IMG/VR virus record: IMGVR_UViG_3300024346_007254
Span: 1-64,000 of that record
DNA from: a virus
DNA length: 64,000 bases
Reading direction: 5' to 3' (one strand)
Both the position numbers and the translations under genes were made by a program. Positions 2,114 through 31,514 of the stretch are shown here, in pieces. The notes beneath the pieces were generated by a model. That model saw only the letters and a program-made list of their open reading frames with translations, was not told the origin of the DNA and ran no database searches. Within the stretch, counting starts at the first letter, position 1. Every line of letters starts with the position of its first letter.

Positions 2114-3450
2114 TATGTTATCCTCGTTTCTAAATATTTAATAATATCGGGATGCAAGTATTCGTGATAATCTTGATCCCTTGATTTATCAAATACTGTA
2201 ATTTCCCTCAACATGTTTTGTCTATGTTCGTCAGTTACATCAAAGTCTAAATTTTCTTCTAAGTATTTAATTACATGCTTCACCATAGTTGAGCCGTGGT
2301 CAGCTGCAAGAGTTTGAAAATTTTTGATCAGGTCGAGCTTTATATCTTTTGTTAAGAATTTAACATTAATAAATTTTTCATCTGGCCAAATCAAGTCTAC
2401 AAAAAAGCTACAATTCTCTACTGTATCATTATTTAAAATACGTTCTTTGTACCATTTATAAAGATCGGGAATGTAGTGTGCGTTGAGCGCACTAAGCACT
2501 ATAGTTGGAAATAAATTTAACTTACGATCGTTTTCGTCAAACTTTGCAATTAGGTTATCTAAACTTTTTACAAGACTGTTCCATTTCATTGGGTAACGAA
2601 TATATTCGTAATTTTTTCCAACACTGTCGATGCTTAGATTTAGAGACGGCGCGCCTCTAAATTTTAACATTTTTTTAACTAATTGATTATTAAATTTTGT
2701 TGCATTTGTATGAAAACTTAAATGTATATTTTTGGCAGCGTCAACTTCTATAGCTTTATCTAAAAACTGTAAAAAAGGTTGAACAATTGTAGGTTCACCA
2801 CCAGTTGCTTTAATTTCTCGCAAGTTGTGTATGTTATCTAAAATATTTTGCCATTGCTCGTTACCGTTCCAAAAATGTGACTTGTTGTGAGAATTTGGAC
2901 CTGTATTATGTAAGAAGGTAGGAATATTAGTTAATTGCTTATCAGATTTCCATTCAAACCCACTGATGCCATTAGTGTCTAGATTGTTTTCAATAAAGTA
3001 ATTATAATCGTGTCTAAGCTTATTACTAAGTCCAGGTTGACACATTCTGCATCTAAGGTTACAATTTTCGCCAAGGCTCAGGTCAACACATTGCATCTTC
3101 GGATTATTAACATCAAACTCATTAGCATCAGGAAGGGTAGAAAAAATCCTATAGCTTGTACTGCCTCTGTCTTCCATTTTCCAACAAGTGTTACAAGCTT
3201 GGGGGCGGTTGCCTGCAAGCATTGATTCTCTTATTGCAGTCATTGCAGGTCCATAGAATATCTCCGTGGGCATAATTTTTTTTTCAGACTTAGCAATAAT
3301 GTCTGCTATATGCAGTGGATCGGGGGTCTCGGGCCTTATTGCATTACAACATGGTGCTGCACTTACAATACCTAAGCCGTCTTTCCACTCCTTTAGTGCC
3401 AATTGACTAAAGGGAAAATAGCAAAACGTATTGTCGGTTTCTGGTTTCAT
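2113..3450 (-). CDS. Radical SAM protein, type C (N-terminal twitch-like Cys domain)
   Basis: N-terminal FCYFPF..PCC..CNTCWKME, then CNLRCRMC, TGGEP, TNAT, YIRYP. Confidence 0.9.
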   Translation of the reverse strand: MKPETDNTFCYFPFSQLALKEWKDGLGIVSAAPCCNAIRPETPDPLHIADIIAKSEKKIMPTEIFYGPAMTAIRESMLAGNRPQACNTCWKMEDRGSTSYRIFSTLPDANEFDVNNPKMQCVDLSLGENCNLRCRMCQPGLSNKLRHDYNYFIENNLDTNGISGFEWKSDKQLTNIPTFLHNTGPNSHNKSHFWNGNEQWQNILDNIHNLREIKATGGEPTIVQPFLQFLDKAIEVDAAKNIHLSFHTNATKFNNQLVKKMLKFRGAPSLNLSIDSVGKNYEYIRYPMKWNSLVKSLDNLIAKFDENDRKLNLFPTIVLSALNAHYIPDLYKWYKERILNNDTVENCSFFVDLIWPDEKFINVKFLTKDIKLDLIKNFQTLAADHGSTMVKHVIKYLEENLDFDVTDEHRQNMLREITVFDKSRDQDYHEYLHPDIIKYLETRIT

Positions 3451-4703
3451 TAATTGTTCTCAGTAGGTATAATCGGAGGAGCCTTTGCTACTTCGTCCAT
3501 ACTGTTTTCAAAAACACTACTATCAATATGATTATAAAGAACATCTTTATAGTTTTCTTTATATGCACTCTTTGGTGCGCAAAGGCCGCAACCACATGTA
3601 GCTTTTGGACAAATAACAGTTGGCATTGTCTTTGACTCAAGGCGTTGTTTTAGATCTGCAATGATTTTATAACCTTCGCTAATCTTTCCAATCGGGCCGC
3701 GTGTTTGATCAAATTTAGCTTGACACGTTTGGTGATGGAATACTTGATCTGTTTGTTGTTCTAAATGCAGGAAGAACCAGTTAACACTGCAATGCCAGCC
3801 TTTAAAGTTTCTAAAGTCAACAAAGGTACTTTTACGATCTTCTCCTTTAGCACTTAGGCACATCTCTCTACTGCCGCAGCACGGTCGTCCAATTGCATAA
3901 CCATCTTTCTTTGGTTTAAGTACAGGAACTGCTTCAGCAACCTTAGTTTCTTCGTTTGTAGGTTCGCCTACAGCACTTAGTTTGTGCGATATTTCTTTTT
4001 CATCATTAAGTTTAGCGTTCTTATACTTCCAGTAGTTTTTCATATAATCAAGTTGTTCTTCAGTATACTGGTGTGCAAAGTCACTAGCACTGCCTGCTTC
4101 TTCTCCAATTACACGCGGTACATACTTTACACCGTTTTCATGCAAAAAATCACATAGCTCTTTGCATTCGTCAAAGTATGCAGCATGAAACATAACATTA
4201 ACACTTACAGTGAAATTATTTGCAGGGCCTTCTTTATGAAACTGCATTATTCTATCTTTAACTTGCTGTTTAAGTTTTTGATTGCTTTCGCTATGATAAC
4301 TAACTGTGGCGTGAGTAAAATGCTTCATTACGTTATCGGCCATCTTCTTGCCCATTGCGCCGTTTGTAGTAAGTGAAAATGTTGCAGTCCACTTGTCACT
4401 ATACCGTTTTTTGTATTCATCTTTAAGATAAATTACAAATGGAACAAAATGAGGGTTAACTGTAGGCTCGCCTCCGGTAAAACTAATAGCGGTATATTTG
4501 TTTTTTCTATATTCCATATATGTATCAATATATTCAAACAAGAAATTTGTGTTAGCTTTTAATTCGTCAAGAGTTGCATGTGGACTAAAGTTATCATGAC
4601 GGTGAACAGGACAATAGCTACAATCATAGTTACATCGTCTTCCAAGATCCCACGACACTTGAAAAACATTTCCAGTAAGCAAGTCTACTGTATCAAAACT
4701 CAT
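3450..4703 (-). CDS. Radical SAM protein, type A with extended Cys-rich C-terminus
   Basis: WDLGRRCNYDCSYC, TGGEPT, PCCG..C, HHQTC, CPKATCGCGLC. Start moved to 4703 because of the ATGA overlap with the upstream stop at 4700-4702. Confidence 0.9.
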   Translation of the reverse strand: MSFDTVDLLTGNVFQVSWDLGRRCNYDCSYCPVHRHDNFSPHATLDELKANTNFLFEYIDTYMEYRKNKYTAISFTGGEPTVNPHFVPFVIYLKDEYKKRYSDKWTATFSLTTNGAMGKKMADNVMKHFTHATVSYHSESNQKLKQQVKDRIMQFHKEGPANNFTVSVNVMFHAAYFDECKELCDFLHENGVKYVPRVIGEEAGSASDFAHQYTEEQLDYMKNYWKYKNAKLNDEKEISHKLSAVGEPTNEETKVAEAVPVLKPKKDGYAIGRPCCGSREMCLSAKGEDRKSTFVDFRNFKGWHCSVNWFFLHLEQQTDQVFHHQTCQAKFDQTRGPIGKISEGYKIIADLKQRLESKTMPTVICPKATCGCGLCAPKSAYKENYKDVLYNHIDSSVFENSMDEVAKAPPIIPTENN

Positions 4704-5482
4704 AAAGAATAACCCTTCTTTGCTGCTTCTTCCATTGCCCATTTTCGTTCAGCACACCAAAAACAATTGTTACATACTTCGAGAGGAATACCGTGTTCGT
4801 ATGTGTCCCACGTTATTCCTTCAAATTGGCCTTCGCAACTTCTTGTAGTAGTTAACAAATCTTGCCACCCATTAACAAAATATTGTTCTATAACCCAATC
4901 TTTTTCAACATACTTAAACGGGTGTAGCTGACTCCATTCTTGTTGTTCTGCTGTGGCGTCCTCTATAGATACCTTTCTATCGTGCGGGGCTTTATTCAGC
5001 TTAACATTGGGGTTTTTAGTAACACAATTGTATATGCGAGAAAGATTGTGTCGTTTAAATGCATATTGATTATATGCACTTACCACCATCCTGTCGCCGG
5101 AAAACGCAGGATCTGCTGGGTTTTTATAAGGTCCGGACTCTTCAAATTGAGGTGGAATAAATCCTTCAATGCGTTCGACAATTACATCTGGAAACATTTT
5201 CTTTAATTTATTGTATACATCAATGCTGATGTATCCAGCCCAAGGCCTATCGGTGTAAACACGAACAAACGAAATTATCTTTATCTTTGTCTTGTATCCA
5301 TTTTCTTGAATGTACTTTGCTAACAGTGACGTAAATAACGCACTGTCGGCACCGCCACTTACATTTATTCCAACATAGTCCCAATTCGGATCGAAGCGTA
5401 CAGGCAAGCCATTTAGCTCATGTAACTTATCACTTATGCCAAGTGAATAGAATTTTTTTTGTATTTCATCAAGATTTGTCAT
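4700..5482 (-). CDS. QueC-like PP-loop ATPase (adenine nucleotide alpha-hydrolase) with C-terminal Zn-binding motif
   Basis: NVSGGADSA PP-loop, TRSCEG...CNNCFWCAER (C...CxxCxxC as in QueC). Confidence 0.8.
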   Translation of the reverse strand: MTNLDEIQKKFYSLGISDKLHELNGLPVRFDPNWDYVGINVSGGADSALFTSLLAKYIQENGYKTKIKIISFVRVYTDRPWAGYISIDVYNKLKKMFPDVIVERIEGFIPPQFEESGPYKNPADPAFSGDRMVVSAYNQYAFKRHNLSRIYNCVTKNPNVKLNKAPHDRKVSIEDATAEQQEWSQLHPFKYVEKDWVIEQYFVNGWQDLLTTTRSCEGQFEGITWDTYEHGIPLEVCNNCFWCAERKWAMEEAAKKGYSL

Positions 5483-6893
5483 CTAGAGATTCCTTATTAA
5501 ATATATCTTTCATTTCAGGAAACGTTTCAGCAAATGTTATCCCACGTTGTTGATCACATAATCCAAGAAACTCTTTCATTTCGGGTAGACGTTGACTCCA
5601 ATCTTCCGAATCCATAAAGCTAAGTATTCCATCAAGACGTTTGATTCCGTATTCTGCTTCTTGCCATGTTTCATATGTTATTTTTCCTTTGTGCCACTCC
5701 GGTATACCTAGTTCCCAGTTTTCTTCCCACCACGGATACCATGCTTCGTACTTATCTCTGCATTCTTTCTTAAACCAAGTAGGTAGAGCTTTTACATTTA
5801 GGTGTGCCGGCCAGTATACAAAGTGCTGACTTATGCCGCCAGCGCCAAATGGCCACATGTTAACCTTTTTAAAACCTTGCTCAAGTTTCCATTGTATAAA
5901 ATCTGGCAAGTAATATACATTAAGGGCTTGTACTGCGCAAGCAATAGTAACCTCGACATTATCACTTGTTTCGTTATCAAGTATGTGGAACACTTCTTCT
6001 TGACGTGTCCACTTACTAGGATAGCGAATATAATCATTCATCTCTTTAATGCTGTCTATCGAATAGTGAAAACGCACCAGCTTAAATTCTTTCCATAAAT
6101 CAAATAGGTCCTCTCTCCATTCAACTCCATTTGAGTTATAACGAAGTTCAAGGTCTTTTGCATAACCCATTTTAATTGCGTGTTCAAGAATTTCATAATG
6201 TTCCTCAATAATAAGACTTTCGCCGCCTGCAAAATAGATTTGTTGCATAGTCGGCATTTGCTCATAAAACTGTTTCCAGAATGTAGGATTTTGTTTGTGC
6301 CAGTTGTAACTACTGCCGTTAGTACTACCTTTGTCTTCCCACTGCATAATCTCTTTAAGTGATTCGTTTTTAACTGCTGGGAAGATAGCTTTGTAGTCTT
6401 TAATCCAGCCACTGCTATCATGCGGGCTGCACATTACACAAGCAAGCTGACACTTTGTTCCAAAACGCAAATCAATGTATGCTAGGTTTGGGGGCACTTC
6501 GCCATCTTCTTTGGTATCGGCTAGAATCTTTTCAAGGTCTACACGCTGGCTCCAATAGTGTGTTTCCCACTGTCGCTTACTACGATGGCCTGCTGCTTCC
6601 TCTTTGTAGCACTTTAAACAGCTAGGTGGTTTTTCTCCGTTAAGCATTTGCTTTCGGACGTTCTTCATGTAGTTGCTATTCCATGCTGTTTCAAAGTCAC
6701 TTACATTTAGATTGTTAGGCTTGCCATCATCTGTTTTAAGAATGCCTACTTGTCCGCCATGTTCTTTGTCATTTGTTGGGCCAACGCTACTTGCGTTAGC
6801 TGTACAACAAACTCTCATGCTGCCGTCTGGGCGTGTACTTAGGTGTACCCACGGCAGGAGGCAAAACGTCTCGCTCGGTAATTTATCGGTCAT
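5469..6893 (-). CDS. Radical SAM protein, type C
   Basis: FCLLPWVHL..VCC..CLKCYKEE, DLRFGTKCQLACVMC, AGGES. Confidence 0.9.
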   Translation of the reverse strand: MTDKLPSETFCLLPWVHLSTRPDGSMRVCCTANASSVGPTNDKEHGGQVGILKTDDGKPNNLNVSDFETAWNSNYMKNVRKQMLNGEKPPSCLKCYKEEAAGHRSKRQWETHYWSQRVDLEKILADTKEDGEVPPNLAYIDLRFGTKCQLACVMCSPHDSSGWIKDYKAIFPAVKNESLKEIMQWEDKGSTNGSSYNWHKQNPTFWKQFYEQMPTMQQIYFAGGESLIIEEHYEILEHAIKMGYAKDLELRYNSNGVEWREDLFDLWKEFKLVRFHYSIDSIKEMNDYIRYPSKWTRQEEVFHILDNETSDNVEVTIACAVQALNVYYLPDFIQWKLEQGFKKVNMWPFGAGGISQHFVYWPAHLNVKALPTWFKKECRDKYEAWYPWWEENWELGIPEWHKGKITYETWQEAEYGIKRLDGILSFMDSEDWSQRLPEMKEFLGLCDQQRGITFAETFPEMKDIFNKESLDDKS

Positions 6894-7972
6894 TAGTTTC
6901 CTTCAATCTTAATTTCGTTATGGTAAGCTTTGTTCATTCCGCATGTACGAACACAACGAGTTAGGTGCAAGCTGTTTTTAGGATCCCAACTTAATTCTAA
7001 CAGTTCAGTATACCACGGATGTGATAGAATTTCTTCTACAGTGTGATATCTAAGGGAATTCCACGTATCACTAAAAATTGCCAACTTGTCGACTATTTTG
7101 TCTCCATTTTTAATAAATTCTGTCCACAAAAAACAGCATGGCCAAACTTTTAAATCTGCAGATATAAAAATCTCTCCCTCATGGATGTACTTACACGTTA
7201 TACTTTTAATTATAGCATCTTTTTCGTTTTTGTCAATTTCTTTGTTTGAGGAATAATCCTCAATGAATTTATCAAGCTTTTGTACTTGAGCCACTTTACT
7301 GTGTTCTTTAGCACCCGTTGTTGTAACTATTTTTTCTTCTTTGACTATTTTACCATTTTGTTTTTTAGTAATTTGCGATAGCCAATCCTGATAGCTGTTG
7401 CGCATACCAGTACGAGTGGCAAATTTTAATCCTAGCTCTGCGGCGTGCTGGCGAGCAGTGTCTAACTCGTATTCATTATGGTCAAACACAATAAAGATCC
7501 ATGTGCCCGTTGCAATGCCTTCGCCGCCTGCCATGTATGCTTTTACGTTACGCTCAATAACTGAGAATTTTGTATTAACTCTGTATATGTGATTTGTTTC
7601 AGCATGACCATCAATACAAAAGACAACGTCTACATTTTGTGTTTCTTTGCCAACTTTGCCTAATTCTCGCCACCATTCTTCTGTACGGATGCCGCCGTTT
7701 GTGCTTAATTGACAACGGCCACCGTTTGTGGCCAAATATCTAACCATGTCCAGACATTCTACGTTTGCAGCCGGGTCGCCTAATACTCCGCAAAACTTAA
7801 ACGATTTTCCAGTAATGTGTTCTTTTTTAGGAAAGGCTGACTGCAAGTCTTTAAATGTAAAACTTTGAATCTTGTATTCGCCGAGCCGTTGTGTCCTTAG
7901 ACAGCCCGGGCACGCCGCATTACAATCCGACGTGATTTCGAGTTCAATTTTTTTAAGGAAATCAACTGACAT
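6893..7972 (-). CDS. Radical SAM protein, type B
   Basis: LEITSDCNAACPGC, FCGVLGDP, IDG, WPCC, CVRTC. Confidence 0.9.
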   Translation of the reverse strand: MSVDFLKKIELEITSDCNAACPGCLRTQRLGEYKIQSFTFKDLQSAFPKKEHITGKSFKFCGVLGDPAANVECLDMVRYLATNGGRCQLSTNGGIRTEEWWRELGKVGKETQNVDVVFCIDGHAETNHIYRVNTKFSVIERNVKAYMAGGEGIATGTWIFIVFDHNEYELDTARQHAAELGLKFATRTGMRNSYQDWLSQITKKQNGKIVKEEKIVTTTGAKEHSKVAQVQKLDKFIEDYSSNKEIDKNEKDAIIKSITCKYIHEGEIFISADLKVWPCCFLWTEFIKNGDKIVDKLAIFSDTWNSLRYHTVEEILSHPWYTELLELSWDPKNSLHLTRCVRTCGMNKAYHNEIKIEGN

Positions 7973-7990
7973 TGTGTACGTACTTTACTC

Positions 7991-8008
7991 TCATAAATAT
8001 ATTTATGA
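7991..8008. promoter_or_regulatory. Perfect 18-bp palindrome containing two opposed late-promoter-like motifs (CATAAATA on each strand)
   Basis: TCATAAATATATTTATGA lies between divergent genes starting at 7972 (-) and 8005 (+). It resembles the T4 late promoter TATAAATA. Confidence 0.65.
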
Positions 8009-9282
8009 ACTCCGATACACCAGAAAATAAAAACAATGCAATACTTAAGAAATATGGCAAATCCTTTTGTGCTGCGCCGTTTACTAGTTTCCACGAAGGT
8101 GAAAACGGTCTTATCAGTACGTGTTGCAAAACTAGAAATCCTCTTGGGTTTACTTCCCAAAATACTGTAGAAGAAATTCTAAACAGCGCAGAAGCACAGA
8201 AAATTCGTAAAGAATTTCTAGAAGGCAAACGCCCAGAGCAATGCAAGGCTTGCTGGAATCTAGAAGAAAGCGGAAAGATTGCTAGCAACAGACTCCATTC
8301 AAATGATATGGGTGCGGCAGGCATTGACGAAGCTGTCGCAAATACTAACGAAAATGGCTATATGAACAAACAGTTTCCAACATGGCTGGATATCTTATGG
8401 ACTAATAAATGCAATTTTGCGTGTATAGGATGCAAGCCTAGTTTAAGTAGTACAATTGCCAACAACTATATAAAAGAATTTTCTATATTGCACAATCACG
8501 ACTACGCAAAAGAACAATCACATGAATGGAAAAATTCAAATGATAGCAAAATAGATTACGTTCTTAAGCATAGTGATTCTATACACACTATTCACCTTAA
8601 CGGCGGCGAACCATTAATGGCCGAAGACTTGTATGAATTCTTAGAAGTAATGATTAGCAAGGGACTTCACAAGAAAATAAAAATATGGAGTCATACTAAC
8701 GGCAGTGTAAAGAGTTTTAAAGGTAGAGATTTAATACTTGATTATTTTTCTCATTGGGGCAAGAATTGTAAGATTACGTTAAGCAATGACGGACATAGTA
8801 AGTACGGTGAATATATTAGATATGGATACAATGATAAAAAATGGCTGAATACATATGAAAAAATTAAAGAAGCAAAAATAGAATTTAACGTTCAGACCTG
8901 TTTAAATATTTTTAACGTATTGTACTTAGATGAAATTAATGATTGGTATTTTTCTAATATTATCGATAATGAAAAGATTCCATATGGAACATTAACCCTC
9001 TGGACAAATCCAACTCTTAGTATTAGGCTAGCAAATCACATACCTGAACTAAGAGAACAGTCGTTAAACATGTTAACACAGCTTCAATCTAAGAAAAGTA
9101 TGCAGTGGAATAAATCACTAGTTTCAAGTCACCAATGGCTTGAAAATAATACACATGCGGACCAACATCATTTGAAGTCTTTTTATAACGGAGTAGTAGC
9201 GTTAGATGCAAAAAGAAATACAAACTTTTTAGAAACGTTTCCGTTGCTTACAGATTTATACAATTTAGGAAAATCTATTTAA
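8005..9282 (+). CDS. Radical SAM protein, type C
   Basis: FCAAPF..TCC..CKACWNLE, CNFACIGC, NGGEP, YIRYG. Start placed at the first ATG (8005). Confidence 0.9.
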   Translation: MNSDTPENKNNAILKKYGKSFCAAPFTSFHEGENGLISTCCKTRNPLGFTSQNTVEEILNSAEAQKIRKEFLEGKRPEQCKACWNLEESGKIASNRLHSNDMGAAGIDEAVANTNENGYMNKQFPTWLDILWTNKCNFACIGCKPSLSSTIANNYIKEFSILHNHDYAKEQSHEWKNSNDSKIDYVLKHSDSIHTIHLNGGEPLMAEDLYEFLEVMISKGLHKKIKIWSHTNGSVKSFKGRDLILDYFSHWGKNCKITLSNDGHSKYGEYIRYGYNDKKWLNTYEKIKEAKIEFNVQTCLNIFNVLYLDEINDWYFSNIIDNEKIPYGTLTLWTNPTLSIRLANHIPELREQSLNMLTQLQSKKSMQWNKSLVSSHQWLENNTHADQHHLKSFYNGVVALDAKRNTNFLETFPLLTDLYNLGKSI

Positions 9283-10024
9283 TTCCAGCTTTTTGTTTTC
9301 CCCAATTGCGTTCTTCACACCAAAAACATTCTCCGCATTCTGGAACAAACTGTCCCTCAACATAATTTTCGTATGTTAGATCATCCCATTCCTGTTCACA
9401 GCTACGTGTTGTATTAAGTAAATCGAGTACATTATTATTAGCGTACTGCTTAATAATCCAATCTTTTTCAGTTAATCTAAATGGTGTTAAGAACCATCCA
9501 TTTTCATCTGCGCTTGCAAGAGTATCTATTTCGTATTTTGGAGTGTCCCTTGCAAGAACTCTGCGGGAGTGCTCTAGTCCTGTAGGATTTTTTGTAGTAG
9601 CATTATATATTGCATCATACTTATTTTGAAATTGAAGATAACGACTATAGCTTACCCCTATAACAACATCGCCTGCGCGGCCATTAATTGGTCCGGCAGC
9701 ACTGAGCTCAAGTTCCGGAGGCATATACATAGTATGTCTTTCTCCAATAATTTCTGGAAATCTATTCTTGAGCCAATTATAAACATTTTCTGCAATACTG
9801 TATTGCCAAGGACGTGTTTTCCACATACGGATATATGATAACACATCAACTTGACAATCGTAGTTGTTTTCTTCAATAATTTTACAAACTAAAAATGCTA
9901 ATATTGCACTGTCTGCGCCGCCACTTAAATTAATAACTACCTTTTTCCATTTAGGATTTACTGGTATTGGAAGACCGTCGACGTTGTGCGTTTCTAAATT
10001 AGTGCTATTATATAATTTTTCCAT
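9275..10024 (-). CDS. QueC-like PP-loop ATPase
   Basis: LSGGADSA, RMWKTRPWQ, TRSCE...CGECFWCEER. Confidence 0.8.
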   Translation of the reverse strand: MEKLYNSTNLETHNVDGLPIPVNPKWKKVVINLSGGADSAILAFLVCKIIEENNYDCQVDVLSYIRMWKTRPWQYSIAENVYNWLKNRFPEIIGERHTMYMPPELELSAAGPINGRAGDVVIGVSYSRYLQFQNKYDAIYNATTKNPTGLEHSRRVLARDTPKYEIDTLASADENGWFLTPFRLTEKDWIIKQYANNNVLDLLNTTRSCEQEWDDLTYENYVEGQFVPECGECFWCEERNWGKQKAGIK

Positions 10025-10033
10025 TTTATTTCC

Positions 10034-19587: not shown

Positions 19588-19604
19588 TATTTACTTGATA
19601 ACTA
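19588..19604. promoter_or_regulatory. Back-to-back late-promoter-like motifs
   Basis: AGTAAATA on minus (19595-19588), 5 nt from ATG 19582. GATAACTA on plus (19597-19604), 5 nt from ATG 19610. Confidence 0.55.
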
Positions 19605-19609
19605 AGTGT

Positions 19610-22087: not shown

Positions 22088-22598
22088 TTGGTTTTCCTAA
22101 AAAATGCATCATGTAAAATGGATCAGATCCGCTGTTTGATTTAGCATGATAGCTATTCCAATTGTCCCATTTAATTATTGTTCCTTGTTCTTGATTGTAA
22201 TAACATTTGTCCTCAACGAGGAACACATGTCCAAATCTAAACTTTCGTCGGTCAAGAAAACAACTCCACCTTACTAGCTCACCATCGGCTAGCCATTCGT
22301 CGGTGCGATCATTAACGTCCCAATGCCACGGCGCAGTTTTTCCAGGCATAAGTTTACTAACCCATGCATACCGAGGGGTAGCGTTTACTTCTCTTGCAAA
22401 CCAATCTACAAAAAGTTTGTCTGGATAATAATTAATCCACTCAACATTTGTTAAATCATAACCTGCTGTTTTCCAGGTATCTAGTATTTCCGTATACGGA
22501 TCAGTTGGACCTGTTGCTCGTTTAAGAATGCCTGTAGCATTATTTGCAATTCCGTTAGTGCAACTTAGCATAATACTATTACAAGCAATTTTATTCAT
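22080..22598 (-). CDS. 2OG-Fe(II) oxygenase
   Basis: APWHWD...GHVF...YHAKSN. Start at 22598 inferred from the short overlap with the upstream gene. Confidence 0.7.
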   Translation of the reverse strand: MNKIACNSIMLSCTNGIANNATGILKRATGPTDPYTEILDTWKTAGYDLTNVEWINYYPDKLFVDWFAREVNATPRYAWVSKLMPGKTAPWHWDVNDRTDEWLADGELVRWSCFLDRRKFRFGHVFLVEDKCYYNQEQGTIIKWDNWNSYHAKSNSGSDPFYMMHFLGKPND

Positions 22599-23268: not shown

Positions 23269-23911
23269 AAGAAAATTCCTTTGGTAGAAGATTCTTTAAT
23301 ACCGGAACATATGCCTCTTCGATATCAAACTTTACGCTTGTTTGTCCTTGTTTAAAATTTGTAATAATTCCAGATTTATTTGCAATGTTTAACCACGGGC
23401 TTAAAGTGTTGTCAAATTTAAAACGTGGATTCTTGCCACGAGCAGTTATAAGCACAGTTACAGGCGATGAAATTTTATTATTAATTAAAAGTTTTCTTAC
23501 AACAAGTTGCTTTCGGTCATATTCGCCAAAATTAACTGCAGAATGGCGAGGACTTGCATCCATGTCATACCAAATTCCATCTGGTTTCAAAAAGAAATTT
23601 TGATTATTATCTAAGTTTACTAATGCTGCACAATCGCCCGAAAGGTTTAAATGATACCTGTCATCAATGTCACTGTGTGAATAGTAGCACGAACCACTCT
23701 TAAGTGTAATGATTCTTGCTTCTCCTGTGTTAGGTGGAAGTACAGACAGCACTTCTTCTATTGCAGTACCTTTATATTCATCTAGTATAACCCAGGGATC
23801 ATAAAAGAAATCGCCAGTGGGTTTATTTAATATTAATTTGTCAGAATTACCAAAAGTACTACAATCGTGTAGTAAACTTAGATTGACTTTATGCCTAGTT
23901 TCGTGTATCAT
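23258..23911 (-). CDS. 2OG-Fe(II) oxygenase (Asp/Asn beta-hydroxylase-like)
   Basis: YSHSD..RYHL..RHSAVN..RKQL. Start at the ATG at 23911. Confidence 0.75.
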   Translation of the reverse strand: MIHETRHKVNLSLLHDCSTFGNSDKLILNKPTGDFFYDPWVILDEYKGTAIEEVLSVLPPNTGEARIITLKSGSCYYSHSDIDDRYHLNLSGDCAALVNLDNNQNFFLKPDGIWYDMDASPRHSAVNFGEYDRKQLVVRKLLINNKISSPVTVLITARGKNPRFKFDNTLSPWLNIANKSGIITNFKQGQTSVKFDIEEAYVPVLKNLLPKEFSYEY

Positions 23912-23916
23912 GTTTA

Positions 23917-23946
23917 TATTTATATGCTCAGTTTTTAGGTTAAATA
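23917..23946. promoter_or_regulatory. Divergent pair of late-promoter-like motifs
   Basis: TATAAATA on minus (23924-23917), 5 nt from ATG 23911. GTTAAATA on plus (23939-23946), 5 nt from ATG 23952. Confidence 0.65.
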
Positions 23947-23951
23947 AAAGT

Positions 23952-24647
23952 ATGATAGTTGACAAATTAGACATCCCACTTGACAAAAGGTGGAGGCGCA
24001 TCGGTATTAGTTTAAGTGGCGGCGCAGATAGTGCATTGCTTGCATACCTAATCTTAAAGAACACTAACGCAAGCATATTCTTTACAACACAAATACGTAT
24101 GTGGAAAACTCGGCCTTGGCAGCGTTATGTTGCAAAGGATGTAGTAAGCTGGTTTAGAGAACACTTTAATAATACCATTGAACACGTCGAAAACTTTATT
24201 CCGCCGGAATTAGAAGAGCCAACAAGCCCTCTTATTACAGACGAGTACGGCAAGCAAAAACCTGGGAATAGAATTATACTAAGGGCGCACAATGAATTTG
24301 TAGCGCATACTTACAAACTCGACGCTTGGTATGCAGGAGTTAATTTAAATCCAACAGAGAAGTTTGATGGTGCGCCGCCCGACAGAGACCAAAGCTTCAT
24401 TCCACTAAATCTTTCGCATATGGGGGTACAAGTACTGCACCCATTTGTTAACACCAGGAAAGACTGGATTATACGCCAGTACATAAATCTCGGAATTGGC
24501 GACTTACTTGAAATTACACGAAGTTGCGAGGGTGAATTTAAAAACTTAGACTACACCAATTACACTCCGTACCAACAAGTTCCAATTTGCAAAACATGCT
24601 TCTGGTGTAACGAAAGAGAATGGGGTGTGCATAATGCATTCAAGTAA
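23952..24647 (+). CDS. QueC-like PP-loop ATPase
   Basis: LSGGADSA, RMWKTRPWQ, TRSCEG...CKTCFWCNER. Start aligned with the paralogues. Confidence 0.8.
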   Translation: MIVDKLDIPLDKRWRRIGISLSGGADSALLAYLILKNTNASIFFTTQIRMWKTRPWQRYVAKDVVSWFREHFNNTIEHVENFIPPELEEPTSPLITDEYGKQKPGNRIILRAHNEFVAHTYKLDAWYAGVNLNPTEKFDGAPPDRDQSFIPLNLSHMGVQVLHPFVNTRKDWIIRQYINLGIGDLLEITRSCEGEFKNLDYTNYTPYQQVPICKTCFWCNEREWGVHNAFK

Positions 24648-25899
24648 AACTTTCTGTATGCATCCGTTTACAGGATTGGCTACAAGAGAAGATGGCGCTA
24701 TTAAAGTTTGCTGTCGCAGTCATTCTGTAGGCTGGATACAAAACGAAACACTCGAAGAGGCGTGGAATAATGACGCCATGCGTACTATACGACGTCAAGT
24801 GCTTAACAACGAACGCCCAGAAGCTTGCATTCCATGTTTTAATTTAGAAGACCAGGGTGTAGAGAGTTTGCGACAAAGACACATACGCGATAGTTTTCCT
24901 GATTCGCGGATCAATTTATATCCAAATGCACTTGACAGTTTAAACGATGATTACAGTATGCCGTTTGAAATGCCTACTATTGAGATTAAAATAAACAATC
25001 TGTGTAATCTAAAATGTCGTATGTGTAATCCTCTAGATAGTACACAATGGAAGGACTGGCTCGAAGTTGAAGAGTTTTACAAAGCAGAGGACAACTACTT
25101 AGTTGATGCTGTGCGCAACTTAGGATTAACAAAAGCACCGTATGTAGGATTGTTTGAAGGACGTGATGACTTTTGGGAGAACCTAGAAAAGCTATTGCCA
25201 TATTTTAGACGTGTAGAGTTTGCAGGCGGCGAGCCATTAATGGATCCTAATCATTACAAAATATTAGACCTGCTTGCTAAGAACGGTGAAAATATAGAAC
25301 TAAAATATGCAACAAACGGAACAGTAACAGGAATTAAGGGCGGACGCACCATTCACGACTATTGGCCGAAGTTTAAGAGCATAGTTGTTAATGTAAGCAT
25401 TGACGGGTTACACGATGTTTATGAATATATTAGAGGCAACGGTAAGTTTGAGGACGTAGAAAAAAATGTTAAAGTATTTAAAAGTTTTCCAAACGTAAAA
25501 TACGTAGTCGGTGCGTGTACTGTGCAAGTCGGAAACATAATGCAATTACATGAAATTATTCCATACTTTTTAAATACAATGGGTATTGTGTTTTATAGTC
25601 ATCGTGTAAACTATCCTAATGTTCTTAGCGCACAATGCATTCCAGCAAAGTTAAAACTCAAAGCAATCCGAAGCCTCGAAATGCTTAAAGCAGAGGTAGG
25701 CGATTATCCTATAATGAATACACACAAAGATCTACTTCCAACAACATTGCGCGGCATTGAAGATAACATTAACTTTTTAGAAAGTAGAGATCTTAGCGAT
25801 AAATGGGCTGACACTCTCAAGTTCAACCAGCGTCTTGATAAAACTCGTAACCAAGGGCCGATGGAAAATATTATAAAGGATTTCAGACCTTATGTATAA
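24634..25899 (+). CDS. Radical SAM protein, type C
   Basis: FCMHPF..VCC..CIPCFNLE, CNLKCRMC, AGGEP. Confidence 0.9.
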   Translation: MHSSKTFCMHPFTGLATREDGAIKVCCRSHSVGWIQNETLEEAWNNDAMRTIRRQVLNNERPEACIPCFNLEDQGVESLRQRHIRDSFPDSRINLYPNALDSLNDDYSMPFEMPTIEIKINNLCNLKCRMCNPLDSTQWKDWLEVEEFYKAEDNYLVDAVRNLGLTKAPYVGLFEGRDDFWENLEKLLPYFRRVEFAGGEPLMDPNHYKILDLLAKNGENIELKYATNGTVTGIKGGRTIHDYWPKFKSIVVNVSIDGLHDVYEYIRGNGKFEDVEKNVKVFKSFPNVKYVVGACTVQVGNIMQLHEIIPYFLNTMGIVFYSHRVNYPNVLSAQCIPAKLKLKAIRSLEMLKAEVGDYPIMNTHKDLLPTTLRGIEDNINFLESRDLSDKWADTLKFNQRLDKTRNQGPMENIIKDFRPYV

Positions 25900-26797
25900 A
25901 GTCGAAAATCGATGGCCGCATTATTACGATAGCTGTAAGATAGAATGGAATCTTGGGAAGCGTTGCAATCTTGATTGTACGTATTGCCCGTCCGAAATCC
26001 ATGACTATACTAGTCCTCACACAGATATTAATATTTTAAAGAAAACAATTGATGTTATTAGCACAATTCCAAATGCTAGGGTTAGTTTAACCGGCGGTGA
26101 GCCATGTGTACATCCTAAAATCTTAGAGTTGCTTTATTACCTTAGAAAAAAAGTCGGATGGATTAATTTAACAACTAATGCTACTCGGAGTCATGAATTT
26201 TATTTAGAATTACCAGTTGACCATATTGTTTTTAGTTTGCACTTTGAACATCCAAAATGGGAAACTCGATTAAACAACATTATTAAATTTGTTAGAGATA
26301 ACAGAAATTCAACAGATGCGCCAAACATAAAATACCACATAAACATTATGGCGCATCACGATTACATGAGTCGTGCTAGGAATGCAGTCGAAACCCTTAG
26401 TTTCTTTAAAGCAAATTATACAGTGCGCAGAATACGCTGGACTGAAAAGCATGACTGGTTTGATGATTTAAAATACAAGCCAGAAGATTTACAATGGCTA
26501 ATTGATACAGAAACTACCGCTGATTTTAATACATTAATCGATAGCAGAACTTTAACTCATACAAACGATTTACTTAAAGAAAACAAAAATAAGTTCGAAG
26601 GGTGGTCTTGTCGTGCAGGTATAGAAAGCCTAATGATAAATTGGGACGGCGATGTTCATCGTGCTACTTGCAGAGTAGGCGGCAGTTTAGGGAATATATA
26701 CAACGGAACATTTGACATTCCAACAGAACCGATTACATGCACCAGAAAATGGTGTACATGTGCAGCAGATGTGAATATTACAAAATGGAAAAAGTAA
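25892..26797 (+). CDS. Radical SAM protein, type A
   Basis: WNLGKRCNLDCTYC, TGGEP, WSCRAG..ATC..CTRKWCTCAAD. Confidence 0.9.
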   Translation: MYKVENRWPHYYDSCKIEWNLGKRCNLDCTYCPSEIHDYTSPHTDINILKKTIDVISTIPNARVSLTGGEPCVHPKILELLYYLRKKVGWINLTTNATRSHEFYLELPVDHIVFSLHFEHPKWETRLNNIIKFVRDNRNSTDAPNIKYHINIMAHHDYMSRARNAVETLSFFKANYTVRRIRWTEKHDWFDDLKYKPEDLQWLIDTETTADFNTLIDSRTLTHTNDLLKENKNKFEGWSCRAGIESLMINWDGDVHRATCRVGGSLGNIYNGTFDIPTEPITCTRKWCTCAADVNITKWKK

Positions 26798-27861
26798 CAG
26801 CAATTGACTTAGTAAAGCCCGAACCATTTATGGTTACGTGGGACATTGGCAGGCGTTGCAACTTTGATTGTACGTATTGTGAAAGTACTCGACACAATAC
26901 CTACAGTCCACCGACTGTTTATAGAGAGCTAGTGGATACATTTGATTTTATTAAAACGTACACTGAGCTATATAATAGAGATTCAGTTAACCTTAACTTT
27001 ACAGGTGGCGAGCCAACAGTGAATCCAAACTTTTGGAATTTAGTTAACCATATAAAAAACCATACTAACTTCGGAGTTGGACTAACTACAAACGGAACGT
27101 GGGATCCTAAGCGTACTGATTTTATTTTAGAGAACATGAACGGAGTTACAATTAGCTGGCATGCCGAAGCACATGAGCAATTACGCGAGCGAGCAATAGA
27201 TAACGCCATAGCACTGCACACAAGCGGGCTGTGGGCTACGGTCAATGTAATGATGCATGCCGACCACTGGGATACTGCGGTAGACGCCTACAACCGCTTA
27301 AAAGCTGCTGGAGTAACAGCTAATCCTGTTCCACTAGGTGACGGTAACATTGGAAATACTAACTGGTTTAAAGATACCGAAGGAGTGTTACGTCGTACTA
27401 GCCATGAATATACAAAAGAACAGATAAGTTGGTTTTGGAACGAAAAAGGCATCTCTAAAGAAGTAGGTGATCAGATATTAGCCGGTAACGAAATGGGAAG
27501 AAGTTGCTGCGGCAATAGATGCTTAAAAGGCAAGATCAATAGCTGGAAACCTGTAGAGCACGTAGACAATCATTTTAAAGATTGGCTTTGTACTGTTAAC
27601 TGGTATTTTATGCATATTGACCAACACACTAAAGATGTGTTCCATCATCAAACATGCCAGGCAACATTTAAACAGACACGTGGACCAATTGGATCTTTAA
27701 AGCGTAAAGATTTAATTTTTGATAACGTTAAAAGATACATGCAATCACCAACGCCTATTGTGTGTCCTAACATGCGCTGCGGGTGCGGAATGTGTGTTCC
27801 TAAAGCAAAAGATCAAATCGATTTTGATCCTATGTGGAAGTTAGTGACTGGTAATCAGTAA
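26785..27861 (+). CDS. Radical SAM protein, type A with extended Cys-rich C-terminus
   Basis: WDIGRRCNFDCTYC, TGGEPT, SCCG, HHQTC, CPNMRCGCGMC. Close paralogue of 3450-4703. Confidence 0.9.
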   Translation: MEKVTAIDLVKPEPFMVTWDIGRRCNFDCTYCESTRHNTYSPPTVYRELVDTFDFIKTYTELYNRDSVNLNFTGGEPTVNPNFWNLVNHIKNHTNFGVGLTTNGTWDPKRTDFILENMNGVTISWHAEAHEQLRERAIDNAIALHTSGLWATVNVMMHADHWDTAVDAYNRLKAAGVTANPVPLGDGNIGNTNWFKDTEGVLRRTSHEYTKEQISWFWNEKGISKEVGDQILAGNEMGRSCCGNRCLKGKINSWKPVEHVDNHFKDWLCTVNWYFMHIDQHTKDVFHHQTCQATFKQTRGPIGSLKRKDLIFDNVKRYMQSPTPIVCPNMRCGCGMCVPKAKDQIDFDPMWKLVTGNQ

Positions 27862-28894
27862 AGTTATCAGTTGGACTAGCTAGTATCTTTCCACAGGTTC
27901 TACTACAAGTCCAAAGCTTCTTTGTGTTCCAGTAATATTCCCAAACACTTTGAAAGCTGTCTTTTTCTAATACCGTTTCAATCCCTTGCAATGCATTAGT
28001 ATCACCAAGTTTTTCAACAAGTTCTGCGTATTGTTTTTTAATTACTCTATTAGCTTGTGATAAGTTATCTTCTTTGCGATAATATTCATACGGAATAACA
28101 GCAAGAAAGCAACAAGGCAATATTGTTTTGTGTGCATCAATATAAATCTCATTTGCATGTTGTGCCTGGCATGAAATATTAGAAGAATTAACTACTTCCT
28201 CAATTTTAGTTAAGTCAGTTGCATCAAAAAACTCAATGCTTGCAGCAGGGGCTTTTTCTAAGTTATATAAGACATTTTCATTTTTGTCTAGTACAGGAAA
28301 TACAGGTTCAAATACAAATCTACTGCTATCCTTTACACTAAAATTTTTGAATCCTAAGTTTTGTGCAGTTTGTTTAGCTGCGTAAACTTGATGCGCATTG
28401 TGTTTAAATCTAATAAAGGACCAATCGGCATTTCCACCTGCATCAATAAATGCTTTAGCGTTGTCTAATATTTTTTGATAATCAGTGCCGCGGCGGTAAA
28501 TTGCATGGGTATCAGCAAGGCCGTCGATTGCAAAAACAACACGATGTTGTGGCGGCATAATCTTTGCTAAGTTTGCCCAATATTCAACTGATCGAAGACT
28601 TCCGTTTGTATGCACGTCAACAAAAATATCAAAATGGTTTAATGATTCAACCATTAAATGAAAATCTTGATTAAGCAATGGGTCGCCGTAATTGCCACAA
28701 AACATTATCTTGCTTAATTGTGCTTTTAAATCATCGTTAACAATTTGATTAAATTCATTTAACGTCCAATCCGATATCTTTAAATACGGGTTGTCTATTT
28801 CGCCACGATAGTTCCTACTACACATAGGACATGCTGCTTGACATCTATTTGTTATTTCAAGATGTAAATTTTTTAATTTGGAATATTTAAACAT
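27830..28894 (-). CDS. Radical SAM protein, type B
   Basis: HLEITNRCQAACPMC, FCGNYGDP, LPCCF, CSRTC. Confidence 0.9.
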   Translation of the reverse strand: MFKYSKLKNLHLEITNRCQAACPMCSRNYRGEIDNPYLKISDWTLNEFNQIVNDDLKAQLSKIMFCGNYGDPLLNQDFHLMVESLNHFDIFVDVHTNGSLRSVEYWANLAKIMPPQHRVVFAIDGLADTHAIYRRGTDYQKILDNAKAFIDAGGNADWSFIRFKHNAHQVYAAKQTAQNLGFKNFSVKDSSRFVFEPVFPVLDKNENVLYNLEKAPAASIEFFDATDLTKIEEVVNSSNISCQAQHANEIYIDAHKTILPCCFLAVIPYEYYRKEDNLSQANRVIKKQYAELVEKLGDTNALQGIETVLEKDSFQSVWEYYWNTKKLWTCSRTCGKILASPTDNFTDYQSLTST

Positions 28895-29520
28895 TCGCCT
28901 AAAATAATATCCCCGGTATGTGCATCAATGTATATATGTGTTCCTAAACTATCAGCAACATAATGTATCCATGCGTCATCAGGATGCTGCTTAATTGGGT
29001 TTAAAAGATATTCCTTTTCTGTTATTGTATATTCCTTGCCAATCGGCTTTGTAAAAATTAAGAAGTCGTGCCTGCCTTCTTGAAAAAAGTCAACTAGTTC
29101 AGTGCAAGTTTCAAACGCTTCTACATCTACAAGTATATTAACATTAACTAAAACATTCATTTCATACAAATATTCAGCCACGTTGCGAGCTTTAACTTTT
29201 TTGATTGTTTTGTAATTTACAATTAAATTAACACGGTCGAGTACTCTTCCTGCCTTTGTCCACCAGATAATACCATTTGAACCATCTGAATCTATTTCAA
29301 GAATACATTTATACGTGTTTTTTAAATAGTCGCACAACAACAAAAAGTTATCACATGTTTCCGGTGCTGCAATGTTAAACTTAATAGTAACAAGCTCATC
29401 TTTTTTAAGTAGACAAGAGATATCTTCTTTTACAGTTTCTAATTCTAATTTCTTAGTTGTGCCAATGTCAAATTCTATTTTTTTAATAATTTTTAAATCT
29501 TTTTTGTGTAAATTCATCAT
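28873..29520 (-). CDS. Hypothetical protein, probable degenerate type-A radical SAM fold lacking the Cys triad
   Basis: KIEFDIG, EIDSDGS..WW, VNVNILVD, YT..EKEYL mirror type-A segments. No CxxxCxxC. Confidence 0.5.
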   Translation of the reverse strand: MMNLHKKDLKIIKKIEFDIGTTKKLELETVKEDISCLLKKDELVTIKFNIAAPETCDNFLLLCDYLKNTYKCILEIDSDGSNGIIWWTKAGRVLDRVNLIVNYKTIKKVKARNVAEYLYEMNVLVNVNILVDVEAFETCTELVDFFQEGRHDFLIFTKPIGKEYTITEKEYLLNPIKQHPDDAWIHYVADSLGTHIYIDAHTGDIILGECLNIPN

Positions 29521-30908
29521 AATAAGTGTGCCAATTCCGGAAATACTTTTTTAGCACTAACACCGCGTATTGCGTCCAGCTTAGTTACATATTCTTTAAA
29601 GTCAGGAAGTAGATATGAATTGTCTTGTGCATTCATATGATTTAGCACTCCTTCCCAACGTGCCCAGCCATACGGATTATTATCCCAAAATCCTTCTGAT
29701 TCGTGATGTGCTTTTAGATATCCTTTAAAACTCATAAAGTTTTCTTCTACTTCTTTTTTATCATCCTTAGGTAACATTTGTATACTTAAAAAGGTCGGAA
29801 TATATAACAGGTGCATGTTAAATAGTCCGCCGCCATGTAGAACAAAGGACGTCATTTCAGTATTAACTTTTTTAAAGTTTTGAGACATTTTCCAATACGC
29901 AAAATCAGGTAAGTGTTTAACATTAAAGATTTGTATTGCGGTTGCAATCGACGGAGATATATTATACGGAGAGTTGTCTAACATATGCATAGTCTCTTCA
30001 ATTGTATTCCAGTCACTTGGATGTCGAATGTATGCATTTCGTTGTCCGGTTGCATCAATACTTACACCAACTTTTACTTGCTGAAAGTAATTCCATAACT
30101 CCATTAAATCTTTGTCAATAAGTAATCCGTTTGTATTATAGCGTAGAATAATGTTTTTGGCATATCCTGATTTTACAATTTGTTCAATAAATTCTTTATG
30201 CTGCTTAATCATTAACGGCTCGCCACCGGCAAAATATACTTCTTTTAAATAGGGAATCTGTCTGTACATTTGATCCCAAAACTCTGGGTTTTCATGCCAT
30301 TTGTTATTAAATGTCATCTTGTCCCATTGTAATTGATCCTTAACTGTTTCACTTTCTAGTTGAGGAAATAGTTCTTGCCAATCTTTGACCCATTTACTAC
30401 TATCATGCGGACTGCACATAACGCACTTGATGTTACAAGTGTGTCCGAGACGTAAGTCAAGGTATTGTAGTTTATCCGGAACCCTGCCCTCTGGTGTTGT
30501 ATTAGATAGTAACTCGGTTAGATCTAAGTCACGCCTTGCTATCCATGCAGAAGTTTCCCACAAGCGTTTGCTTGCAACTCCTTTTGCTTCTTCTTCAAAG
30601 CATTTCGTACAACTAGCAGGAATGTTTCCTTCCATCATTGTTGTACGCACAGATCTCATGTAATCACTGTTCCATGCTTCAAGTGGTGTCATTTTTGCAA
30701 AATTAGAAGGATTACCGTTAACGTCTTTTACTAATCCTATAGTATGATCAGTGCCTGCGCCGCTGGCATTTGCAGAACAACAAAGGCGCATATCCCCATT
30801 TGGTCTAGTTGCTAAATGTATCCACGGAAGAGCGCACATTGTTTTTGTACCGGATTCTTCAATCACGTGCTGCCAATGTTCCATTATTCTTTGGCTGGAA
30901 TTTGACAT
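29517..30908 (-). CDS. Radical SAM protein, type C
   Basis: MCALPWIHLATRPNG..LCC..CTKCFEEE, CNIKCVMCSPHDSS, AGGEP. Close paralogue of 5469-6893. Confidence 0.9.
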   Translation of the reverse strand: MSNSSQRIMEHWQHVIEESGTKTMCALPWIHLATRPNGDMRLCCSANASGAGTDHTIGLVKDVNGNPSNFAKMTPLEAWNSDYMRSVRTTMMEGNIPASCTKCFEEEAKGVASKRLWETSAWIARRDLDLTELLSNTTPEGRVPDKLQYLDLRLGHTCNIKCVMCSPHDSSKWVKDWQELFPQLESETVKDQLQWDKMTFNNKWHENPEFWDQMYRQIPYLKEVYFAGGEPLMIKQHKEFIEQIVKSGYAKNIILRYNTNGLLIDKDLMELWNYFQQVKVGVSIDATGQRNAYIRHPSDWNTIEETMHMLDNSPYNISPSIATAIQIFNVKHLPDFAYWKMSQNFKKVNTEMTSFVLHGGGLFNMHLLYIPTFLSIQMLPKDDKKEVEENFMSFKGYLKAHHESEGFWDNNPYGWARWEGVLNHMNAQDNSYLLPDFKEYVTKLDAIRGVSAKKVFPELAHLL

Positions 30909-31514
30909 CTACTTTCTTCCAATCACTAAAAATCTATTATATAACGGCAACTCTAAAGTTTCCTTACAATATATACTATTTAATCCGCAAAAATCAGCAA
31001 ACTTATCTGCATCAACTTCACAGCGTACATGCTCCGGAAGGGAAGTATAATTATTGCTCTGCAAAATAACTAAACTGCTATCAGGTACACGAGATAACCA
31101 TAAGTCGTAATGATCACGTGTTAAATGTTCAGTACTTGTGTTAATTACATATTCGGGTTCTGTTTCATAATTCCATGCTGCCATGTCAGAGGTATGTGCA
31201 TGAAAGCGGCTTTCCATTTCAAACCTCTTGTTAATCATATTAGCAACTTCTTCGCAGCCTGGATCAATATCAATACTATCTATGTGATTAATTGGAATTT
31301 GGCTGTTAAACATCAAGCTTGCAAGCACTCCGTTCCATCCGCCGTGTATAACAGCGTTAGCAGGTTCAGAGTGTGCATATTTTTGCAAATGTTCAATTAG
31401 CCAAACTTTGCTATAAACTTGACCACGCCAAAAGCTTTCCAATGTGCCAAAGTAGTTTTCACTTTGTCTAATTGCATCCATCCAAAAAATAACATCTTCT
31501 ATTTCTACTTTCAT
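30909..31514 (-). CDS. Class I SAM-dependent methyltransferase-like protein
   Basis: IHGGWNGVLA, IDSIDID, VINTSTEH. Confidence 0.65.
   Translation of the reverse strand: MKVEIEDVIFWMDAIRQSENYFGTLESFWRGQVYSKVWLIEHLQKYAHSEPANAVIHGGWNGVLASLMFNSQIPINHIDSIDIDPGCEEVANMINKRFEMESRFHAHTSDMAAWNYETEPEYVINTSTEHLTRDHYDLWLSRVPDSSLVILQSNNYTSLPEHVRCEVDADKFADFCGLNSIYCKETLELPLYNRFLVIGRK

Follow-up and report, generated by a model that had tools for sequence, protein, structure and literature searches.

The window analysed here, which covers the first 64 kb of a viral contig 74.9 kb in length (IMG/VR record IMGVR_UViG_3300024346_007254), contains an enzyme island at 7-47.6 kb with 18 genes for radical S-adenosylmethionine (rSAM) enzymes, three for PP-loop ATPases, and two for methyltransferase (MT)-like proteins; glycosyltransferase (GT)-like and sugar-nucleotide enzymes are encoded in the same island. 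An enzyme cassette that recurs across related phage loci and in Bdellovibrionota is present in this island in two diverged versions, termed T1 and T2. We hold with moderate confidence that a resident T1 core has been joined here by a partial T2 core from a T2-type phage, and that the function lies in sugar or glycan tailoring. The constant core of the cassette comprises a GT-A-like protein, an MT-like protein, and three rSAM proteins that have auxiliary Fe-S domains, namely rSAM-C, rSAM-A of the 5469/29517 type, and the 7-1119-type rSAM-B, or B0 (genes are named by their coordinates in the window). The initial annotation of the window rightly proposed a recurring cassette, but the core it put forward (MT, rSAM-A, rSAM-B, rSAM-C, and a QueC-like ATPase) has to be revised. 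Across related loci the QueC-like genes and the rSAM-B type represented by 3450 and 26737 are accessory, and the set that co-occurs in other genomes has the GT-A-like protein and B0 in their place. Literature searches found no description of the cassette; its division into two lineage versions, contigs with both of them, the distinction of core from accessory genes, and the partial second copy are new here.

Two versions of the cassette in one phage

Block I (7-16113) holds the complete T1 core, made up of 14779, 12143 and its partner of 74 amino acids (aa), 10034, 5469, and 7-1119, with accessory genes in between:

14779-16113, minus strand: two-domain GT-A-like protein of the T1 backbone with DxD-type motifs; its C-terminal half is paralogous to 44143-45072
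12143-13123, minus strand: T1 MT-like protein; an N-terminal helical-repeat domain (residues 8-129) is followed by a predicted class I SAM-dependent methyltransferase fold
11932-12156, minus strand: conserved, T1-specific 74-aa protein; the start of the gene overlaps the end of the MT-like gene
10034-11113, minus strand: T1 backbone rSAM-C with the CQAACPMC motif, a C-terminal Cys cluster, and an intact CX3CX2C motif
5469-6893, minus strand: T1 backbone rSAM-A with an N-terminal twitch domain (family NF033640)
7-1119, minus strand: T1 backbone rSAM-B0, single-copy in the window
1172-10024, mixed strands: T1 accessory genes amid the backbone, with rSAM-C 1172 and 6893, rSAM-A 2113 and 7972 (plus strand), rSAM-B1 3450, and QueC-like 4700 and 9275

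Block II, delimited at approximately 17.3-31.5 kb by synteny with related loci, holds part of a T2 core (30909, 29517, and 27830) together with T2 accessory genes. It lacks a 7-1119-type rSAM and a GT-A-like gene and is therefore a partial copy. Block II and the stretch that follows it contain:

30909-31514, minus strand: T2 MT-like protein of 201 aa without the N-terminal repeat domain, 34% identical to 12143; in the T2 clade (support 98-99)
29517-30908, minus strand: T2 rSAM-A (NF033640), nested in the T2 clade (support 100/100)
27830-28894, minus strand: T2 rSAM-C, nested in the T2 clade of rSAM-C (support 97)
23817-27861, plus strand: T2-linked operon with a QueC-like gene, rSAM-A2 24625, rSAM-B2 25892, and rSAM-B1 26737
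17279-24076, mixed strands: T2-linked genes of no assigned function (17279, 18767, 19595, 20253, 21554, 22080, 22591, and 23258), syntenic with T2 loci and without Pfam matches
31511-44143, mixed strands: rest of the sequence between 42761 and 14779 that is missing from T1-only relatives, with a sugar-nucleotide module, DUF6071 gene 37995, rSAM-B 38725, and rSAM-A 40266 and 41542

Both blocks thus differ in extent from the approximately 3.4-13.1 kb and 24-31.5 kb originally assigned to them. In an all-vs-all blastp of the open reading frames (ORFs) of the window, four pairs that link the blocks are reciprocal best hits: rSAM-A 5469/29517 (41.6% identity over 466 aa, E 3e-131), rSAM-B 3450/26737 (33.5%, E 4e-73), rSAM-C 10034/27830 (29.4%, E 5e-57), and the MT-like proteins 12143/30909 (E 6e-35), whose match is limited to the C-terminal 190 aa of 12143. 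These four pairs, predicted from the sequence by the initial annotation, are real. The predicted exclusive pairing of the QueC-like proteins 9275 and 23817 (38.4% identity, E 3e-48) does not hold, because 9275 is closer to 4700 in block I (38.9%, 177 vs 153 bits) and the three QueC-like copies fall into separate clades of an open fork in the family tree. The motifs by which the pairs had been recognized are present letter for letter, except that the quoted rSAM-C motif is one spacer residue short (G...NP). The picture of one core module in two copies captures the two diverged versions but is too simple, since the window encodes eight rSAM-A, five rSAM-B, and five rSAM-C proteins (13818 counted) and three QueC-like proteins, and since gene order and strand differ between the blocks, which are not collinear. 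Further paralogues form a third group at 38.7-45 kb, and 44143 is a paralogue of the C-terminal part of 14779 (blastp, 34% identity).

At the DNA level, blocks I and II have only short coding-motif stretches of 60-85% identity in common, and thus there is no sign of a recent duplication. A recent segmental duplication in this genome, followed by fast divergence, would account for the reciprocal best hits of four families between the blocks. However, protein identities of only 29-42%, the lack of DNA repeats beyond the short coding motifs, the different order and strand of the genes, and the closer orthologues found in other phages (83-92% identity for 5469 and up to 70% for 29517) make this scenario exceedingly unlikely.

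Scans of viral contigs recovered 160 relatives with 5469 and 192 relatives with 29517, and the 80 loci kept from each scan are 83-92% and 54-70% identical, respectively. The contigs found with 5469 reach 382 kb, and the largest is rated complete. The core is single-copy in approximately 350 related jumbo-phage contigs and occurs in two lineage versions: T1 contigs are mostly from marine-looking samples, and T2 contigs represent more distant relatives. Searches of whole records found exactly one backbone rSAM-A in each of five large T1 contigs (147-382 kb; 45-46% identity to 29517, none T2-type) and in each of five large T2 contigs (102-221 kb; 42-44% identity to 5469, none T1-type). At least three other contigs, recovered in both scans, carry both versions, separated by approximately 20 kb and arranged as in the window. 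The gene order in T1 loci is 14779-like, 12143-like, the 74-aa gene, 10034-like, a first variable region, 5469-like, a second variable region with assorted rSAM genes, and 7-1119-like. T2 loci have on one strand 14779-like, 7-like, 30909-like, one or two 27830-like, 29517-like, and 38725-like genes, and on the other strand 25892-like, 24625-like, and QueC-like genes, followed by homologues of 23258, 22591, 22080, 17279, 18767, 19595, and 20253. As this T2 layout recurs, block II is syntenic with T2 loci from approximately 17.3 to 31.5 kb.

Gene presence was counted in the 74 viral loci with full 10-kb flanks (43 T1 and 31 T2), and all counts are lower bounds. Among the T1 loci, rSAM-C was present in 41 (10034 orthologues, 60-89% identity), the 74-aa gene in 36, the GT-like gene in 36, the MT-like gene in at least 31 (12143 orthologues, 45-72% identity), B0 in at least 29 (75-88% identity), a QueC-like gene in 22, and the 3450 type in 18. 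The 14779-like gene lies upstream of the MT-like gene in these 36 loci and likewise in the cassettes of Bdellovibrionota. Each accessory gene of block I occurs in only part of the T1 loci and has its own clade in the family trees. All 31 T2 loci carry the 24625 and 25892 types; rSAM-C follows with 27 loci, the QueC-like gene with 26, the MT-like gene with at least 22, B0 with at least 14 (45-51% identity), and the 26737 type with seven. The baseplate wedge protein is 59-81% identical to that of the window in T1 phages and 39-54% identical in T2 phages; the divergence of the two cassette versions therefore mirrors that of the phage lineages. Set against the 59-81% for the wedge (L165:14337-17771) in five T1 contigs, the 83-92% identity of the backbone rSAM-A in the 80 kept T1 loci points to a constraint that appears unusually strong for a gene that encodes an enzyme in an 'auxiliary' island.

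When bacterial genomes were scanned with the MT-like alignment and with B0, the cassette turned up in at least 25 loci of Bdellovibrionota, complete chromosomes among them. It is single-copy in these bacteria, most commonly in the order B0 > C < A > GT-like > MT, and its identities to the window are 58-69% for B0, 56-61% for rSAM-A, and 42-49% for rSAM-C. In one locus, next to tadA-yqeY-dnaG-rpoD, the cassette includes a gene for a carbamoyltransferase of the NodU/CmcH type. Genes of this type were seen in five loci (for example at 5702-7519 of the Bdellovibrionales chromosome L179) and have no counterpart in the phage island. Several neighbour clusters in high-GC bacterial loci were discarded as Arg-rich shadow ORFs. 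Contigs in bins labelled Rickettsiales, Crocinitomicaceae, Neisseriaceae, Neomarinimicrobiota, Flavobacteriales, and Gammaproteobacteria (L166-L168, L195, L246-L248, and L284) contain the phage-type island at phage-level identity, including genes from the tail-fibre side, and are probably misbinned phage contigs.

A few further observations concern single genes of the two blocks. The longest ORFs of the divergent genes 23817-24647 (plus strand) and 23258-24076 (minus strand) overlap by 260 nucleotides. Alignments with homologues begin at approximately residue 44 of 23258 and at the Met at 23952 of the QueC-like gene, which suggests that the true starts of both genes are probably internal and that the genes do not overlap. 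In two T2 loci (L158 and L119), 17279-like genes (160-180 aa, no family match) are repeated in tandem up to five times beside the T2 cassette, and the window has three paralogues of this type (17279, 21554, and 22080). In two loci (L007 and L003), the final 75 residues of a 10034-type rSAM-C (6553-6777; 88% identity) recur as a stray copy after an inserted 13818-like gene; this copy looks like a recombination scar of cassette insertion. The gene at 34792-35883 has orthologues of 76-86% identity in contigs with both versions, and no Pfam match was found for it at E <= 0.01.

Origin of the second set

In a T1-only locus (L001), a 42761-like gene directly abuts a 14779-like gene. In the window, the T1-type rSAM-A gene 42761 comes after the genes at 31511-41542; the region from 16.1 to 42.7 kb, approximately 26 kb, is therefore extra in comparison with such relatives. 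It holds block II, the sugar-nucleotide module (according to Pfam an epimerase/dehydratase, 31511, and a DegT-like protein, 33450), and 38725-41542.

Gene phylogenies place the second set with the T2 lineage. In the rSAM-A tree (IQ-TREE), 29517 and its relatives from two-version contigs are nested inside the T2 clade, and the T1 clade is nested among Bdellovibrionota sequences (support 97/95; 80/93 for T1 plus bacteria). The B0 tree unites T1 with the bacterial copies against T2 with a support of 100, and in the tree of MT-like proteins 30909 sits deep inside the T2 clade. The accessory rSAM-B1 proteins 3450 and 26737 belong to one 14-row clade (support 95) together with other sublineages. Judged by these placements, the block II genes are best read as what corresponds in the T2 lineage to the block I genes, residing within a T1 phage. 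Because block II is nested in T2 clades and T1 groups with bacterial copies, the trees favour acquisition of the second set from a T2-type phage rather than duplication in place. The initial annotation had left open whether the unit was duplicated or acquired twice; the trees lean toward the latter, and a recent duplication is contradicted. It had also treated the blocks as reciprocal nearest paralogues, which is in part not the case, since wider trees place block I genes closer to bacterial copies than to block II. The second set may have arrived by recombination with a T2-type phage, and B0 and the GT-like gene would be single because one copy serves both sets.

Alternatively, the cassette may have been duplicated in the common ancestor of T1 and T2, after which most lineages lost one copy and the lineage of the window kept both. 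The T1 and T2 clades of rSAM-A do lie inside one well-supported clade of the A family (FastTree 99), an approximately unbiased test does not reject T1 plus T2 monophyly of rSAM-A (p 0.23), and block II has no compositional signature. Moreover, two-version contigs whose baseplates are only 60% identical have a common layout, and the arrangement must therefore be old. However, an ancient duplication would need many independent losses, given approximately 350 single-version contigs and only a handful with both. It also fits poorly with the nesting of block II in T2 diversity beside T2-only phages (L091 and L096) that keep the T2 B0 and GT genes, with the grouping of T1 and bacterial copies in the B0 and rSAM-A trees, and with a T1/T2 cassette distance that matches the distance between the phage lineages. 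We therefore regard this history as rather unlikely.

Acquisition of a T2 core for sugar or glycan tailoring nevertheless has several points against it. Besides the outcome of the monophyly test and a GC content that does not set block II apart as foreign, the T1, T2, and bacterial copies of rSAM-C form three clades with an open fork at the base, and the resolution at the base of the MT-like tree with bacterial sequences is too low to settle the position of T1 with respect to T2. The flanks used for the presence counts were held to 10 kb, and many contigs are fragments. Finally, the putative GT-A-like assignment draws on motifs and an automatic atlas name, and we infer the enzyme functions and the substrate.

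Predicted chemistry and substrate

All 18 rSAM proteins of the window keep the CX3CX2C motif, and 15 of them match PF04055 above the cut-off (6893, 10034, and 40266 are below). The eight rSAM-A proteins all pass the cut-off of 170 bits for NF033640 (N_Twi_rSAM): 5469 scores 424 bits, 41542 387, 29517 386, 40266 385, 24625 326, 42761 307, 7972 263, and 2113 241, so that scores range from approximately 240 to 424 bits. In each, an N-terminal Cys domain (C..CC..CxxC, with a single C for CC in 42761, and a Pfam SPASM match at the N-terminus) precedes CX3CX2C. The name of this family, of which eight members are found here in one phage island, says nothing about the substrate, and no characterized member was found in the literature. 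Grell, Goldman and Drennan, writing in 2015, reportedly described twitch or SPASM auxiliary clusters in BtrN and other rSAM enzymes that act on sugars or aminocyclitols. The rSAM-A proteins resemble BtrN-type enzymes in having an rSAM core with an auxiliary Fe-S domain and in a genomic context of sugar-nucleotide enzymes and a glycosyltransferase-like protein. The twitch domain is C-terminal in BtrN, however, and N-terminal in the rSAM-A proteins of the window. No significant sequence match of 5469 to any solved structure was found.

The MT-like proteins 12143 and 30909 have no sequence match in Pfam, NCBIfam, PHROG, or PDB and belong to no curated methyltransferase family. In an AlphaFold2 (AF2) model of this family (predicted local distance difference test, pLDDT, 94), the features of a class I fold are recognizable, namely seven strands in a Rossmann-like arrangement, a Gly-rich motif I, and an acidic residue behind strand 2, with G168-W169 and D191/D193 as invariant residues. 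The top Foldseek matches are class I methyltransferases or aminopropyltransferases (E about 1e-7), among them CFA synthase, NodS, TehB, and spermidine synthase, and the structural neighbours comprise methyltransferases as well as aminopropyl- and aminocarboxypropyl-transferases. The modelled fold would thus be equally compatible with alkyl transfer of the spermidine or nicotianamine synthase type. PDB searches with the single sequences of 5469, 12143, and 9275 gave nothing useful, and neither did profile searches with the MT-like and QueC-like alignments.

The QueC-like proteins share an SGGADS PP-loop and four Cys residues that are invariant in 26 sequences, in agreement with the PP-loop ATPase fold and the C-terminal Cys (Zn) site of QueC. 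An AF2 model of the family (pLDDT 93.7; 9275 as first row, 23952-24644 among the rows) has its best Foldseek matches to QueC (2pg3 and 3bl5); the loop, the four Cys residues, and the best structural matches (2pg3, 3bl5, and 9nto) are points of likeness to QueC and to the QueC-like protein Cap9. However, TM-scores are only 0.5-0.66, 23817 reaches 18.7 bits against a cut-off of 22 for the Pfam family of QueC (PF06508), and 9275 and 4700 have no QueC match. QueE, MiaB, and TYW1 are rSAM enzymes, and there is support for the QueC-like fold; the QueC-like ATPases could hence be taken to act together with the rSAM enzymes in a hypermodification of DNA or tRNA, of the 7-deazaguanine or another type. 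This possibility is very unlikely. A search that was positive in 14 of 14 control genomes detected no homologue of TGT or DpdA in five records of related phages, among them the complete one of 382 kb, and no window rSAM has a QueE-level match in NCBIfam (FolE and QueD had no search of their own). In addition, the QueC-like genes are accessory, not core, and the island lies in a structural, not a replication, region of the genome.

The genomic context leans toward sugars. The putative GT-A-like proteins 14779 and 44143 have DAD and DGD motifs; they have no Pfam or PHROG match, and their nearest atlas clusters are automatically named GT2-like, which is a lead only. Genes of this type are in the core, an NDP-sugar epimerase/dehydratase and a DegT-like aminotransferase are encoded in the island, and GT8-like genes are nearby. 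MT-like homologues in more than 25 other bacterial loci adjoin GT4 and GT28-like genes. We give an even chance to sugar or glycan tailoring as the function of the cassette. The rSAM enzymes would then perform C-H chemistry on a sugar or glycan unit, accompanied by SAM-dependent alkylation, and the GT-like protein would transfer the unit. The second trio of MT, rSAM-A, and rSAM-C may yield another variant or work on another acceptor, with the virion as a plausible site.

A different substrate would be a peptide. In a maturation system as known for peptides that are made by ribosomes and then altered post-translationally (RiPPs), the rSAM enzymes would cross-link, epimerize, or methylate the 74-aa protein or the tail-fibre proteins, and the two sets would serve two substrates. 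SPASM/twitch rSAM enzymes are typical peptide maturases, and weak NCBIfam matches to such families were seen; the island adjoins tail-fibre genes, and translation of the conserved 74-aa gene is coupled to that of the T1 MT-like gene. This protein was found in 65 T1 loci, in none of the T2 loci, and among bacterial loci in two phage-like ones only, and it is thus absent from the T2 and bacterial cassettes. It is 62-84% identical across the 65 loci, with 27 invariant alignment columns, and it is conserved uniformly along its whole length without a leader/core pattern; it has no protein-family match and no usable atlas match. Moreover, Pfam scans of the window gave no PqqD/RRE match, no protease or exporter genes were found, and GT-like and sugar-nucleotide genes are integral to the island. 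RiPP-type maturation is therefore improbable.

The source phage and wider significance

Sequence comparisons identify the source as a probable uncultured marine jumbo myovirus, distantly akin to the group of Rak2, GAP32, and Atu_ph07. Its baseplate wedge matches PHROG 10646 (E 2e-298) and is 33-36% identical to the wedges of Salicola phage SCTP-2, Agrobacterium phage Atu_ph07, Cronobacter phage GAP32, and relatives, which are jumbo myoviruses with genomes of 350-490 kb. A 22-kb part of the window had no megablast match among 50,697 phage records, and tblastn with 5469 on the same collection gave only three distant matches (22-23% identity), none of them from an isolate close to the island. Sequencing-run shares suggest that marine metagenomes hold block II. 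The consensus of the phage T4 late promoter, TATAAATA, is not enriched in the window (five matches vs 8.4 expected), and a looser TAAATA box is located upstream of 10 of 63 genes.

The enzyme island adjoins genes for tail-fibre-type proteins (49.6-69.3 kb), and baseplate genes come next. Three consecutive tail-fibre-type paralogues at 49655-54990 have their first approximately 230 residues in common (33-38% identity), and their C-terminal parts are different; a phage tail collar domain is present in one of them, and one matches the chaperone-like Peptidase_G2 weakly. Directly upstream of them, a minus-strand ORF of 4570 aa spans 55625-64000 and continues to contig position 69337 (L165). Its product is probably a giant fibre or decoration protein. 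In mycobacteriophages, clusters for virion glycosylation have glycosyltransferase genes next to structural genes. The island is similar to such clusters in placing tailoring and transferase genes beside tail and structural genes; however, those clusters contain ordinary glycosyltransferases and no rSAM enzymes, and we infer the virion as the target in the window.

An abundance of rSAM genes in a marine virus is not without precedent: a 183-kb T4-like viral genome with 12 such genes was read in terms of Fe-S related metabolism (Nishimura et al., 2017; PMC5332604). The likeness is confined to the gene count; the account of that genome contains no cassette, no families of paralogues, no bacterial link, and no second copy (PMC5332604).

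If the reading offered here is correct, an uncharacterized cassette of five genes (GT-like, methyltransferase-fold, and three rSAM) extends from Bdellovibrionota chromosomes to hundreds of aquatic jumbo-phage contigs, and tailoring islands appear to evolve by combining lineage-specific versions of the core with swappable accessory rSAM and QueC-like genes. The cassette defines a minimal set for biochemical reconstitution. Contigs with both versions are a natural experiment for telling specificity-setting components, which would be those kept twice (MT, rSAM-A, and rSAM-C), from generic ones, which would be those kept once (B0 and GT). That the duplicated proteins would set specificity and that the single B0 and GT-like proteins would be shared is a prediction, not a result. 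More speculatively, aquatic jumbo phages of a widespread group could build a heavily rSAM-tailored, glycan-like decoration on their tail fibres or virions with up to 18 Fe-S enzymes, mixing core versions so that a foreign trio yields a new decoration; we put this forward tentatively. A second, foreign trio of MT, rSAM-A, and rSAM-C would then confer a new decoration, from which new properties in host range or anti-defence would follow, and phages and predatory Bdellovibrionota would have in common a five-gene core that is mixed in the form of lineage-specific versions.

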